The notes beneath the pieces were generated by a model, which worked only from the letters and a program-made list of their open reading frames with translations, did not search any database and was not told the origin of the DNA. Made by a program: the position numbers and the translations under genes. A stretch of 18,151 nucleotides of DNA, from the IMG/VR virus record IMGVR_UViG_3300033153_008619; one strand, 5' to 3'. Origin of the DNA: a virus. Positions 11,892 through 15,473 of the stretch are shown here, one piece after another (position 1 is the stretch's first letter; each line of letters starts with the position of its first letter).

Positions 11892-11925
11892 AAGTAATTA
11901 TACAATTTTTATTGATTTTTTTCAA
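11892..11925 (-). promoter_or_regulatory. sigma70-like early promoter TTGAAA-17-TGTATAAT giving a leaderless start
   Basis: Minus strand: TTGAAA (plus 11920-11925), a 17-nt spacer, TG-extended TATAAT (plus 11897-11904), then TACTT-ATG. The core AAAAATTGTATAATTA is identical to the motif at 16606-16625. Confidence 0.45.
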
Positions 11926-12910
11926 ATAAGCTATCAATCCATTTTTTAGCTATCATCAATCTATGATAATAGCCCTCACCGGCTATTACTCTAAAATCAA
12001 TCCCTATATCACTTAGCATACCTTTAAGAATATTATTATTTATTATTCTTTCTTCTTTTCCACCCGCAAACCTATACCCATCATCAACCCAATCAACTGT
12101 AGGTTCAAGGAAAATATACATATCATATTCTTGTGCTTCAGCTATTTTATCTATAACTTCTGAGTGTTTATCCAAATACATATTAAGATAATATTGAGTA
12201 GTCACAGCTTCTGTATCAACGAATAATACCTTATTACTATCCTCTGTCATTTTTTCTACTGTGACGTAATGCTTCATTGCAATTTCATCAAAGTGCTGAG
12301 CTGTGAGTTGATTTGAATGAACCTCACAATACTCTCTTCCTATCTCACCAACATAGTTCGTATTGTATAGTTTAGCAAGGTATCTAACCATTGTAGATTT
12401 ACCACAACTTTCAGTTCCTATAATACAAACCTTCTTCACAAAATCCTTACGCACTACTTTAGGTAACATATCCCAATTTGAATATGGATTTTTTCTTATC
12501 TCCGTAGCACTAATAGGATATGCTTTTCTTTCTTCGTCTAAAAGCATATGTTCAGCACCTGGATAAAGTTCTTTAAAGATTGGGCCATAAGAAGGTTCTG
12601 AACTGTACACATGAGTTATTGGAGTAGGTATTGCTGCTTTGATAAGTTCAGCGCCTTTCTTGAAGTCATATTCATTTATATGAATTAACTCTACATTCTC
12701 CATATCTGCTATGATCTGGCCTATCCATGAGATACGTTTTTGTGGTGAGGCATAAAATACTCCTGCTTCTCCACATAGTATTTCTTCTTCTTTTTTATCT
12801 GTGCATAAGACTACATATAAATGATCCATTTCACAAGCCGCAGATGTTATTGCATAAACATGCCCTTGATGTATTGGTAGAAATTTACCGCCATAAAATC
12901 CTGTTTTCAT
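11909..12910 (-). CDS. nadR: NadR-type bifunctional NMN adenylyltransferase / ribosylnicotinamide kinase (no HTH domain)
   Basis: Nucleotidyltransferase motif GGKFLPIHQGHVYAI (H-x-G-H) in the N-terminal half. Walker A IGTESCGKST in the C-terminal RNK half. 333 aa. Confidence 0.8.
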   Translation of the reverse strand: MKTGFYGGKFLPIHQGHVYAITSAACEMDHLYVVLCTDKKEEEILCGEAGVFYASPQKRISWIGQIIADMENVELIHINEYDFKKGAELIKAAIPTPITHVYSSEPSYGPIFKELYPGAEHMLLDEERKAYPISATEIRKNPYSNWDMLPKVVRKDFVKKVCIIGTESCGKSTMVRYLAKLYNTNYVGEIGREYCEVHSNQLTAQHFDEIAMKHYVTVEKMTEDSNKVLFVDTEAVTTQYYLNMYLDKHSEVIDKIAEAQEYDMYIFLEPTVDWVDDGYRFAGGKEERIINNNILKGMLSDIGIDFRVIAGEGYYHRLMIAKKWIDSLFEKNQ

Positions 12911-12943
12911 AATTCAGTATATCACTTTTTTATTTTTTTGACA

Positions 12944-12970
12944 AATAAAAAAAGCCCCCTTTTCGGGGGC
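12944..12970 (-). terminator. intrinsic terminator after pnuC
   Basis: A-run followed by hairpin GCCCCC-TTTTC-GGGGGC on the plus strand, which gives hairpin plus U-run on the minus strand 5 nt beyond the pnuC stop. Confidence 0.65.
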
Positions 12971-12975
12971 TTAGA

Positions 12976-13674
12976 CTATGCCTCTACGGGCTGTGCCTTA
13001 TATAATTTTATCCAGTTTATTAGACCATAAACTGCATTTACCAAATATGCTACCCACATCATGGCTATTGCTATATTTGTGCCACTTGCTTCAAATACAA
13101 CTAACCACATGTAAATACTTACAATATCTACAATAATCCAAAGAACCCATTGTTCCATAAAACGCCAAGCCATAAGAATCATTGCTATTACTGAAAGAAC
13201 TGTGGATATAGAATCTATAAATGGAAGTTCTCCACCAATAGATTTAAGTATAAATCCATATCCTATTATTGCTCCAGCACTTATTCCTGCCCAAATTAAT
13301 TTCCACTTATTAGATAGAAATTTAATCTTAACAGAATCTACTTTGGTCTTATCCCTGTTTTTCATCCAAAGATAAATACCAACTCCTTGCATTGGAAGGA
13401 AATAAAATGCGTTAAGCATTACCTCTCCATAATACTTCCAAGTGTATGCAAGAAAAGCATAACCAATCACATTAACTATTCCAAACCAATAGTTAGCAAT
13501 CTTTCCTTTTGCTACAAGCAATACACACCAAATACCTGTAAGTGAAGTGACAATACCTAAAGCAGTATCCTTCAAATACAATGAAAGCCCAAGGATAATA
13601 ACTGTAAAGCCGAATAGCCAAGCTTTATCCCATACGTTCCAATCAGCGAAATACCTTTTTAGTGCATTTACCAT
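12976..13674 (-). CDS. pnuC: PnuC nicotinamide riboside transporter
   Basis: Multi-TM protein. PnuC-like start KRYFADWNVWDKAWLFGF and the conserved W..G..N..Y / YGE pattern (WFGIVNVIGYAFLAYTWKYYGEVMLN). TAG stop. Confidence 0.75.
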   Translation of the reverse strand: MVNALKRYFADWNVWDKAWLFGFTVIILGLSLYLKDTALGIVTSLTGIWCVLLVAKGKIANYWFGIVNVIGYAFLAYTWKYYGEVMLNAFYFLPMQGVGIYLWMKNRDKTKVDSVKIKFLSNKWKLIWAGISAGAIIGYGFILKSIGGELPFIDSISTVLSVIAMILMAWRFMEQWVLWIIVDIVSIYMWLVVFEASGTNIAIAMMWVAYLVNAVYGLINWIKLYKAQPVEA

Positions 13675-13689
13675 TCGCTCCCTCCTCCA

Positions 13690-14871
13690 TCATTTTACTT
13701 TCTCCTTTATCATTTTCTTCATTATTTCCATCATCTTATCATCCTCACACATTTCCTTTCCTGGCTCATCTGAAGTTTTAGTAGTAGCAACTCCGTTACA
13801 CTTAGTCATTTTAAATACTACATTCAAAGCATCGTGAGAAGTGAAGTTATTGGTAAGACTTGTTCCTATACCAAAGGAAACACTGAAGTCGCTAAAATAG
13901 CCTCTAATATCTACTGCCGAATCAACATTAAGACCGTCTGAAAATATGTATGATTTACTCTTAGGGTCTATGCCAAGACTTTTATAGTGAGCGATCATTT
14001 TGTTTCCCCAATCAAAAGGGTTACCAGAATCGTGTCTTACTCCGTCATAAAGTTTAGCAAAATATGTATCAAAGTCTTTACAGAAAGCATCTGATCCATA
14101 CGTATCAGTTAATGCTATTCCCAAATCTCCACGATAAACTTCCGTCCATTTTTCAAGCATAAAAGCCTGTGATTCACTTGGATTATATGTTATGCCAACT
14201 CCTGCCATAATCCACTCATGGGCCATTGTTCCAATAGGTTTAAGGCCATATTTCATTGCTAAATAAACATTAGATGTTCCAATGAAAGCTTCAAGGTCAG
14301 AAAGTTCATAGACAACTGTTTCTTGCCATTCTTTGCTCCACCTTCTACGAGTTCCAAACTCAGCAACTTTTATATCACTAGTATATATTACATTCTTATT
14401 ATAGTTAAGAATTTTAGATCCTTCTCTTTCTATTCTACTATAGTCAACCGATATTAAGTAATGAAAATATACTTCATTAACGATAGCGAGAATAGGAACT
14501 TCAAAAAGAATAGTATAATACCACGGCCCTTCAACTTCTATTGAGAGCTTACCCTTTTTGTTCCTTATTTTTATATGACCATCAGCAAACCCTAGTTGTC
14601 TTGGACGATAAGTATATAACTTATTAAGAAAACCGCTTTTTATGAATGGCAATAATCTCAGATAGTCTAGTTCTTCTCTATCAAACTTAAGACTACAATA
14701 AAGGTCTATTTGCCGAGAAACTTCTTCTGCCATTGCCTTTGTGAAGGTAACATCTTTCCTAAAGAAAAGTTTATACTTCACATTCGCATCTGGAAACTTT
14801 TCCCATACGGCTTGCATCATTGTGAGTTTATAAAGGTCTGTGTCTAACAGTGATGTGATTATTTGATTCAT
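13690..14871 (-). CDS. pncB: nicotinate phosphoribosyltransferase (PncB)
   Basis: Blockwise match to E. coli PncB. SLLDTDLYKLTMMQAV matches SLLDTDAYKLHMQQAV. FGTRRRWSKEWQETVV matches FGTRRRFSREVQETIV. GTMAHEW, GIALTD and RHDSGNPFDWGNKMIAHYKSLGIDPKSK are also conserved. Start overlaps the pncA stop (ATGA). Confidence 0.85.
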   Translation of the reverse strand: MNQIITSLLDTDLYKLTMMQAVWEKFPDANVKYKLFFRKDVTFTKAMAEEVSRQIDLYCSLKFDREELDYLRLLPFIKSGFLNKLYTYRPRQLGFADGHIKIRNKKGKLSIEVEGPWYYTILFEVPILAIVNEVYFHYLISVDYSRIEREGSKILNYNKNVIYTSDIKVAEFGTRRRWSKEWQETVVYELSDLEAFIGTSNVYLAMKYGLKPIGTMAHEWIMAGVGITYNPSESQAFMLEKWTEVYRGDLGIALTDTYGSDAFCKDFDTYFAKLYDGVRHDSGNPFDWGNKMIAHYKSLGIDPKSKSYIFSDGLNVDSAVDIRGYFSDFSVSFGIGTSLTNNFTSHDALNVVFKMTKCNGVATTKTSDEPGKEMCEDDKMMEIMKKMIKEKVK

Positions 14872-15473
14872 TTAATAATGTCTCCCATAAATAATATATC
14901 TATCCCAGCCTTTGACATTTCTATAAAAGATTGTCTATATGTGGTTTCACTAACAGAAGCACAAGCATCCGAAATTACAACTACTTTACCGAACTCACCG
15001 CCAAAATCTTTCATAAAATCAAGAGCGGTTGCTTTTACACATACATCTGTAGCTATACCACAAATATAAAACTCTTGATAATCTTCAACTTCATTATCAA
15101 TACTAGGAATGTAATAACGTCCAAGACGAGTTTCCGTTCCATCATTGTCATAAAGAGCAGAATATGAATCTACATTCATATCCATTCCTTTTCTTGAATA
15201 CAACTGAATCGGCATAGTATCGAGATCAGAATGGAGTTCAGCTCCATATGTTCCTTGAACACAGTGAATAGGCCATTCACCAAAAGAACAGTGAAATGAA
15301 GGATGCCAATCTTGAGTGGCAACAATACTATCCCAAAATCCACCTGTGCGTGTCATTCCTAGAGCGGTAAGTTTGTTAATGTTCGGGATTATATCTCTAC
15401 CTCTATCAACAGCGAGACTTCCGCCTATACAGAAATCATTCTGTACATCTACGATTATCAAGTGTTTTCTCAT
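14868..15473 (-). CDS. pncA: nicotinamidase / pyrazinamidase (PncA, isochorismatase fold)
   Basis: LIIVDVQNDFCIGGSLAV, ATQDWHPSFHCSF, HCVQGTYGAELH, DSYSALYDNDG and ICGIATDVCVKATALDF parallel E. coli PncA. Carries the catalytic D, K, C triad context. Confidence 0.85.
   Translation of the reverse strand: MRKHLIIVDVQNDFCIGGSLAVDRGRDIIPNINKLTALGMTRTGGFWDSIVATQDWHPSFHCSFGEWPIHCVQGTYGAELHSDLDTMPIQLYSRKGMDMNVDSYSALYDNDGTETRLGRYYIPSIDNEVEDYQEFYICGIATDVCVKATALDFMKDFGGEFGKVVVISDACASVSETTYRQSFIEMSKAGIDILFMGDIIK

Follow-up and report, generated by a model that had tools for sequence, protein, structure and literature searches.

The viral sequence IMGVR_UViG_3300033153_008619 from IMG/VR (18,151 nucleotides [nt]; here called the window) carries four consecutive genes for salvage of nicotinamide adenine dinucleotide (NAD+). 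They lie on the minus strand at positions 11909-15473 and are transcribed in the order PncA, PncB, PnuC, NadR. The window is part of a large, probably jumbo, phage. We consider it likely that the locus belongs to an accessory counter-defence region of this phage where two NAD+ salvage modules that were acquired separately are adjacent. PnuC and NadR are predicted to form a self-sufficient route from nicotinamide riboside (NR) to NAD+. PncA and PncB are predicted to end at nicotinate mononucleotide (NaMN), which leaves the Preiss-Handler route in the window incomplete. The genes and control elements concerned are the following.

15490-15518, minus strand: promoter-like site upstream of PncA
14868-15473, minus strand: PncA-type nicotinamidase, 201 amino acids (aa)
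13690-14871, minus strand: PncB nicotinate phosphoribosyltransferase, 393 aa
12976-13674, minus strand: PnuC NR transporter, 232 aa
12952-12972, minus strand: intrinsic terminator hairpin
12916-12944, minus strand: promoter-like site before NadR
11909-12910, minus strand: NadR-type nicotinamide mononucleotide (NMN) adenylyltransferase (NMNAT)/ribosylnicotinamide kinase (RNK) without a helix-turn-helix (HTH) domain, 333 aa
3076-3618, minus strand: Nudix hydrolase, NUDT5/ADP-ribose pyrophosphatase-like, 180 aa

A preliminary description of the window had placed four consecutive NAD+ salvage genes at 11909-15473 and a Nudix gene at 3076-3618. Open reading frames (ORFs) were present at exactly these coordinates on the minus strand. 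Pfam, NCBIfam, and PHROG searches agreed with the identities proposed for the four module genes, and the fifth protein is a Nudix hydrolase that resembles ADP-ribose pyrophosphatases. Of the profiles named in the description, PF04973, Isochorismatase, and TIGR01514 matched with the scores given below. E values of this order lie well outside chance expectation.

PncA matched the Pfam family Isochorismatase (E value, 7.7e-20). Its top seven matches in the PDB were all nicotinamidases or pyrazinamidases (one under a generic name), and the best was 2wt9 (1.4e-29). Aligned with nicotinamidase structures, it keeps the catalytic triad D9, K95, and C145. It also keeps the metal ligands D55, H57, and H70, which form the nicotinamidase-specific metal site. 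It is predicted to convert nicotinamide to nicotinate and NH3.

PncB scored 422 bits against TIGR01514 (cutoff, 269.6) and 482 bits against NF003704 (cutoff, 379). It matched PDB entry 1yir at 3.3e-86 and keeps H218 within a GTMAHE motif. The predicted reaction is nicotinate plus phosphoribosyl pyrophosphate (PRPP), with ATP, to NaMN. A mis-annotated Namat or Nampt was ruled out because the protein passes the PncB equivalog cutoffs and its gene is translationally coupled to that of a nicotinamidase. Its match to the PHROG Nampt family was weak by comparison (3e-21). An exact-protein look-up with PncB found nothing.

PnuC matched PF04973 at 3.4e-47 and TIGR01528 at 139.5 bits (cutoff, 42.5). 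It also matched PDB entry 4qtn (4.1e-44) and phrog_1880 (2.2e-57). The motifs GKIxNY, PxQxVG, EQWxLW, and YLxNxVYG are kept. These contain Asn and Gln and line the NR pocket.

NadR scored 211 bits against NF005988 (cutoff, 201) and aligned to profile positions 66 to 408 of 411. Because the alignment starts at position 66, the N-terminal HTH is absent, as the preliminary description held. The 65 nt between PnuC and NadR leave no space for one. NadR matched phrog_3462 at 4.6e-98. Its best PDB match was 9x6f, the enzyme Bas30_86 of the phage pathway NARP3 (7e-56). It contains the motifs GKFLPIHQGH at residues 8 to 17 (HxGH) and ISATEIR at 133 to 139 (ISxTxxR) and a P-loop at 165 to 172. The predicted reactions are NR to NMN and NMN to NAD+. 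No close relatives of NadR were retrieved when IMG/VR was scanned. The sole match in an exact-protein look-up was a 2.9-kb Joint Genome Institute contig of the same phage, which was 99.9% identical to part of the module.

The Nudix protein matched PF00293 at 6.8e-15 and contains a canonical Nudix box at residues 77 to 99. Its best PDB match was the human ADP-sugar pyrophosphatase NUDT5 (9e-25), and the Thermus ADP-ribose pyrophosphatase matched at 4e-15. It scored below the NCBIfam subfamily cutoffs for NudE (54 against 169) and YffH (41 against 79.6).

Every substantial ORF in the window is on the minus strand. The PncA stop and the PncB start share the sequence ATGA, an overlap that can be read directly and that supports the coupling proposed earlier for this pair. 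Good Shine-Dalgarno sequences are present at both genes. The promoter-like site upstream of PncA (TAGACA, 17-nt spacer, TAAAAT) is a consensus match only and is followed by the Shine-Dalgarno sequence AAGAGG ahead of PncA. PnuC and NadR are adjacent, and the gap between them contains a strong terminator and a promoter-like site. The hairpin was retrieved in a terminator scan. It lies four bases past the PnuC stop (12972-12952) and has a perfect 8-bp stem with 6 G-C pairs, followed by a T-run. The 81-nt region that contains it folds at -22.3 kcal/mol (z = -3.3). The promoter-like site before NadR (TTGTCA, 17-nt spacer, TATACT, extended -10 TG) matched 10 of 12 positions in a consensus scan and is a sequence match only. 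Its end is 5 nt ahead of the NadR ATG, with no recognisable Shine-Dalgarno sequence between the two. This arrangement suggests that the NadR mRNA may be leaderless. Together, the terminator and the promoter-like site indicate that the module is probably transcribed as two units and not as one uninterrupted operon. An Rfam scan near the module retrieved no NAD+ riboswitch (nadA or pnuC motif).

When the module was compared by megablast with 50,697 phage records, no match was returned. The closest PncB homologue (72% identity) was found on a 258.6-kb contig. This contig is syntenic with the window and contains radical SAM, HD_4, PncA, PncB, Rnl2, Apyc1, major vault protein (MVP)-like, and Nudix genes, the last encoding 182 aa at the same relative position. 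The comparison was made with its gene and Pfam list around PncB, and PnuC and NadR were not in that list. A second contig (L089; 2.9 kb) encodes the same PncB protein as the 258.6-kb relative. Its nucleotide identity to the window is 74% over PncA-PncB, and the homology breaks off precisely at the stop codon of PncB. The ORF that L089 has downstream of PncB does not resemble the one downstream of NadR in the window. Since the relative lists no PnuC-NadR and the L089 homology stops at the end of PncB, PncA-PncB is the core that this lineage conserves, and PnuC-NadR is a separate acquisition. The two pairs are separable, given a relative with PncA-PncB only and the terminator and promoter-like site between PnuC and NadR.

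In the established Preiss-Handler pathway, conversion of NaMN to NAD+ requires NadD and NadE. All frames of the window were searched for NadD, and the sole match was the NMNAT domain of NadR (E = 0.021). The other scanned ORFs, including every remaining ORF long enough for NadD, gave no NadD match in Pfam. A tblastn search of all window frames for NadE returned nothing with an E value below 0.5. The PncA-PncB route is not self-sufficient because neither gene is in the window. The preliminary description had called the locus a complete dual-route module, which was an overclaim. The 258.6-kb relative lists no NAD_synthase family within 10 kb on either side of PncB.

We retrieved 80 IMG/VR loci with PncB and counted genes within 10 kb of it. 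A NadD-like gene was present in 74 of the 80 loci and NadE in 76. PncA was found in 62 and DUF5662 (as a tblastn match) in 60. Unlike most of these loci, the window and its closest relative have no NadD-like gene or NadE near PncB. This absence is unusual among viral PncB genes. Both loci viewed in detail (L016 and L012) have the order PncA-DUF5662-PncB-NadD-NadE, and the counts over the 80 loci suggest that this arrangement is typical. The DUF5662 gene lies between PncA and PncB at 9433-9999 in L016 and at 9457-9978 in L012, and there is none in the window. It may be an unrecognised component of viral Preiss-Handler clusters. PnuC and NadR matches were found in three loci (L012, L046, and L058). 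The NadR match in L046 and L058 was limited to the N-terminal adenylyltransferase part. The window PncB is at most 47% identical to the PncBs of these viral clusters, compared with 50 to 54% for its best other database homologues. The few of those with a taxonomic name are bacterial. These identities suggest that the window PncB may have been acquired independently of the viral-cluster PncBs.

The remainder of the window contains many small ORFs without family matches and the following features.

17739-17898: perfect tandem duplication of 80 nt, two copies, 100% identical
16651-17469, minus strand: radical SAM protein
16039-16605, minus strand: HD_4 (RelA/SpoT-type hydrolase-like) protein
15516-16037, minus strand: very acidic (Asp/Glu-rich) protein, 173 aa
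10080-11087, minus strand: T4 Rnl2-type RNA ligase
7497-8369, minus strand: Apyc1-type anti-Pycsar phosphodiesterase with a metallo-beta-lactamase fold
7304-7408, minus strand: wcaG RNA motif (Rfam RF01761)
4455-7052, minus strand: MVP-like protein, 865 aa
300-4206, minus strand: 10 tRNA genes

Apyc1 matched PF23023 with 91 bits (cutoff, 50) and is kept in the 258.6-kb relative. The RNA ligase matched PF09414, PF18043, and phrog_548 (1e-45). The relative has an extra CCA-adding/PolyA polymerase gene besides Rnl2, which suggests tRNA repair functions. Apyc1 and Rnl2 are known or likely counter-defence functions near the module. The region can be read as a counter-defence island, and Apyc1 supports this.

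The tRNA genes comprise two each for Pro, His, Ser, and Thr, one for Tyr, and one other. The tenth (1050-977) has the anticodon CTA and is an amber suppressor. This suppressor is a hint that TAG may be recoded in other parts of the phage genome. TAG serves as a normal stop in 6 of the 18 window genes.

The MVP-like protein contains a Vault_3 repeat, an MVP shoulder domain, and a cap-helix region that forms a long coiled coil. Its alignment with rat MVP spans residues 465 to 852 of the latter, with an E value of about 5e-14. Matches in the phage collection were found only in megaphages of 462 kb and 735 kb. Its closest relatives are encoded on IMG/VR contigs of 46.6 to 114 kb (58 to 60% identity). 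A scan of genome contigs retrieved only bacterial homologues (37 to 49% identity) in Myxococcota and Riflebacteria metagenome-assembled genomes (MAGs). A preprint from 2023 was the first to note viral MVPs. The shoulder of the human vault binds ADP-ribose or NAD+ (PMC12280208; bioRxiv 10.64898/2026.05.01.722283). The same binding was considered for the window protein, but its sequence gives no support for it. The human keyhole loop G-R-P-K-R-P-H aligns to G-T-P-K-N-D-D in the window protein, and the basic loop is not kept. The wcaG motif scored 50.5 bits (gathering score, 42; E = 5.5e-7) and is situated in the interval bounded by the stop of Apyc1 and the start of the MVP-like gene.

The HD_4 and radical SAM genes lie just upstream of the module, and both are kept in the relative. 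In the IMG/VR relatives L083 and L084, HD_4 is likewise found after the MVP-like gene. The acidic protein is encoded directly upstream of PncA and has no family match. The relative has a 63-aa ORF in its place. The composition of the acidic window protein recalls that of DNA-mimic anti-restriction proteins. Each copy of the 80-nt duplication holds the terminator hairpin AGGGAGCTTCGGCTCCCT followed by a T-run. The duplication could be real or an assembly artefact.

The proposed mechanism is as follows. Defence NAD+-cleaving enzymes (NADases) of the TIR, SIR2, and SEFIR types cleave NAD+, which yields ADP-ribose and nicotinamide. PncA would deamidate the released nicotinamide, and PncB would turn the nicotinate into NaMN. 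NadD and NadE of the host, or from elsewhere in the phage genome, would then carry NaMN through nicotinate adenine dinucleotide (NaAD) to NAD+. The phage pair would contribute only the Preiss-Handler entry steps. Nearly all bacteria have NadD and NadE, both of which are essential, and PncB is known as a step that limits flux. PnuC would import external NR, and the HTH-less NadR would phosphorylate and then adenylylate it to NAD+, as in NARP3. The NUDT5-like protein may hydrolyse ADP-ribose, with AMP and ribose-5-phosphate as products, and the latter could feed synthesis of the PRPP used by PncB. Conserved synteny and homology make a functional link of the Nudix gene to the module plausible, if tentative. 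Both modules together may keep NAD+ available during infection, including under NAD+-depleting defences. We infer these enzyme activities, the dependence on host NadD and NadE, the counter-defence role, and the Nudix link from homology and gene context. Rebuilding of NAD+ under NADase defence, as suggested in the preliminary description, is a plausible role, and PnuC with an HTH-less NadR constitutes the experimentally validated NARP3 pathway (PMC13464706).

A more specific proposal is that the coupled PncA-PncB pair, without NadD and NadE, is a fourth, host-dependent phage NAD+ route. It might counter NAD+-depleting defences alone and be stacked with a NARP3-type pair for precursor-independent coverage. 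We put this forward tentatively, as somewhat less probable than its opposite. Several points weigh against the counter-defence reading or against its details. We found no paper that tests PncA/PncB as counter-defence, and no "NARP4" was found in the literature. PncA scored 134 bits against the NCBIfam PncA equivalog NF008623 (cutoff, 174), with a match in two stretches. The NMNAT domain of NadR scored 230 bits against the equivalog TIGR01526 (cutoff, 341). The Nudix gene is about 8 kb from the module, with unrelated genes between. NadD and NadE could sit elsewhere in the phage because the window covers only 18 kb of a genome that is likely about 250 kb. Removal of nicotinamide would also relieve product inhibition of sirtuin-type NADases, which is of no obvious benefit to a phage.

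The locus could instead serve general auxiliary metabolism. It would raise the NAD+ supply of a large phage that needs much of it (for an NAD+-dependent ligase, redox enzymes, and ADP-ribosyltransferases) or that infects NAD-limited or auxotrophic hosts. In a 2024 survey of gut jumbo phages, clusters of this kind are interpreted as a means of making NAD+ independently, as a complement to the pathways of the host (PMC11662467). PncA/PncB/NadD/NadE clusters are also common on large viral contigs whatever the defence context. However, a counter-defence phenotype has been demonstrated for the homologous PnuC-NadR pair, and the module lies among Apyc1, Rnl2, and Nudix genes. We consider auxiliary metabolism in place of counter-defence unlikely, although the two roles are compatible with each other.

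The NMNAT domain of NadR might also adenylylate NaMN. PncA, PncB, and NadR would then form a three-step route to NaAD, and host NadE alone would be needed. NadR lies beside PncB in a cluster without NadD, and its NMNAT domain is weakly similar to a phage NadD-like protein (E = 0.021). However, the closest relative keeps PncA-PncB without NadR nearby, which implies that the pair works without it, and the terminator sets NadR apart from the PncA-PncB-PnuC unit. To our knowledge, characterised NadR enzymes strongly prefer NMN. We give this route little credence.

It is very improbable that the window is bacterial chromosomal DNA carrying a host's ordinary operon for NAD salvage. In favour of that reading, the nearest PncB homologues with a name, leaving the relative aside, are bacterial (47 to 54% identity), and MVP-like homologues occur in the Myxococcota and Riflebacteria MAGs. 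Against it, the window packs 10 tRNA genes, the amber suppressor among them, into 4 kb, and its genes are all on one strand, with many small ORFs that lack family matches. It also has Rnl2, Apyc1, PHROG matches, MVP-like matches in megaphages with closest relatives on IMG/VR contigs, and no housekeeping genes. The phage origin given in the preliminary description follows from the tRNA genes, Rnl2, Apyc1, the PHROG matches, and the IMG/VR and megaphage relatives.

NAD+ depletion is among the commonest bacterial abortive-infection strategies, and which phages escape it is decided by their pathways for rebuilding NAD+. This locus stacks two salvage modules in one phage. The modules move independently, as the closest relative has only PncA-PncB. 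If PncA-PncB works alone, the list of phage NAD+ countermeasures becomes longer and more parts become available for engineered therapeutic phages.

The preliminary description regarded the gene combination as a different solution from known phage systems. As a claim of novelty, this is not supported. A 2024 preprint pointed to an operon of PnuC with an HTH-less NadR as a likely pathway (bioRxiv 10.1101/2024.02.11.579819). NARP3, published in 2026 (Yan et al., Sci Adv 2026; PMC13464706), comes from Escherichia phage TrudiRoth and consists of the PnuC protein Bas30_87 and the HTH-less NadR Bas30_86. It counteracts Sir2-HerA and DSR1 by restoring NAD+ as well as growth of the phage if NR is available (PMC13464706). 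Like NARP3, the window has a phage-encoded PnuC-type NR transporter beside an HTH-less NadR with NMNAT and RNK domains. Unlike in NARP3, a terminator and a promoter-like site lie between the two genes of the window pair, and its order is PnuC and then NadR. It adjoins PncA-PncB, a pair unmentioned in the NARP3 paper. Some of the residues mutated in Bas30_86 have no exact counterpart: as we read the alignment, S37 falls opposite C36 and E230 opposite V218/E219 of the window NadR. The window phage is large, low-GC, and uncultivated, whereas TrudiRoth is a T5-like enterobacterial phage.

The 2024 survey of gut jumbo phages reported Preiss-Handler genes (pncB-nadD-nadE), pncA, pnuC, and genomes with two NAD+ routes (PMC11662467). 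Its clusters and the IMG/VR loci share with the window a PncA and a PncB close together on a large viral contig. They usually have DUF5662 between PncA and PncB, and a NadD-like gene and NadE are almost always there. In the window, PncA and PncB overlap directly, and NadD, NadE, and DUF5662 are absent.

The 735-kb megaphage LR756501 encodes PncB, PnuC, NadR, and PncA within about 8.5 kb on one strand. It also encodes an MVP-like protein. It differs from the window in an extra NadE and a TonB-dependent receptor, in gene order, and in identities of only 30 to 43%. Its cluster was retrieved as L085 (LR756501.1, 405000-450000) and occupies 18002-26475 on a single strand. The order is PncB, a 170-aa ORF, a 91-aa ORF, NadE, the TonB-dependent receptor, a 205-aa ORF, PnuC, NadR, a 116-aa ORF, and PncA. 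The 2024 survey states that the LR756501 genome lacks a complete NR salvage pathway (PMC11662467).

NARP2 and the NadV-NatV system of KVP40 also recycle nicotinamide with PRPP and have an associated Nudix ADP-ribose pyrophosphatase activity. NARP2 uses an amidated route in which Nampt converts nicotinamide to NMN and an NMNAT converts NMN to NAD+, and it is self-sufficient. In contrast, the window PncA and PncB would follow a deamidated route to NaMN that is not self-sufficient. NARP1 (Adps and Namat) has the same goal of rebuilding NAD+ from NADase products. The window differs in having no PRPS-like Adps gene and in a phosphoribosyltransferase that is a bona fide PncB equivalog. Pfam and NCBIfam scans of the window retrieved no PRPS-like or Nampt-equivalog gene. 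The locus is a well-supported, solid but incremental example of the known phage NAD+ salvage and reconstitution clusters. Its specific points are two separable modules stacked together and a minimal PncA-PncB pair without NadD and NadE.

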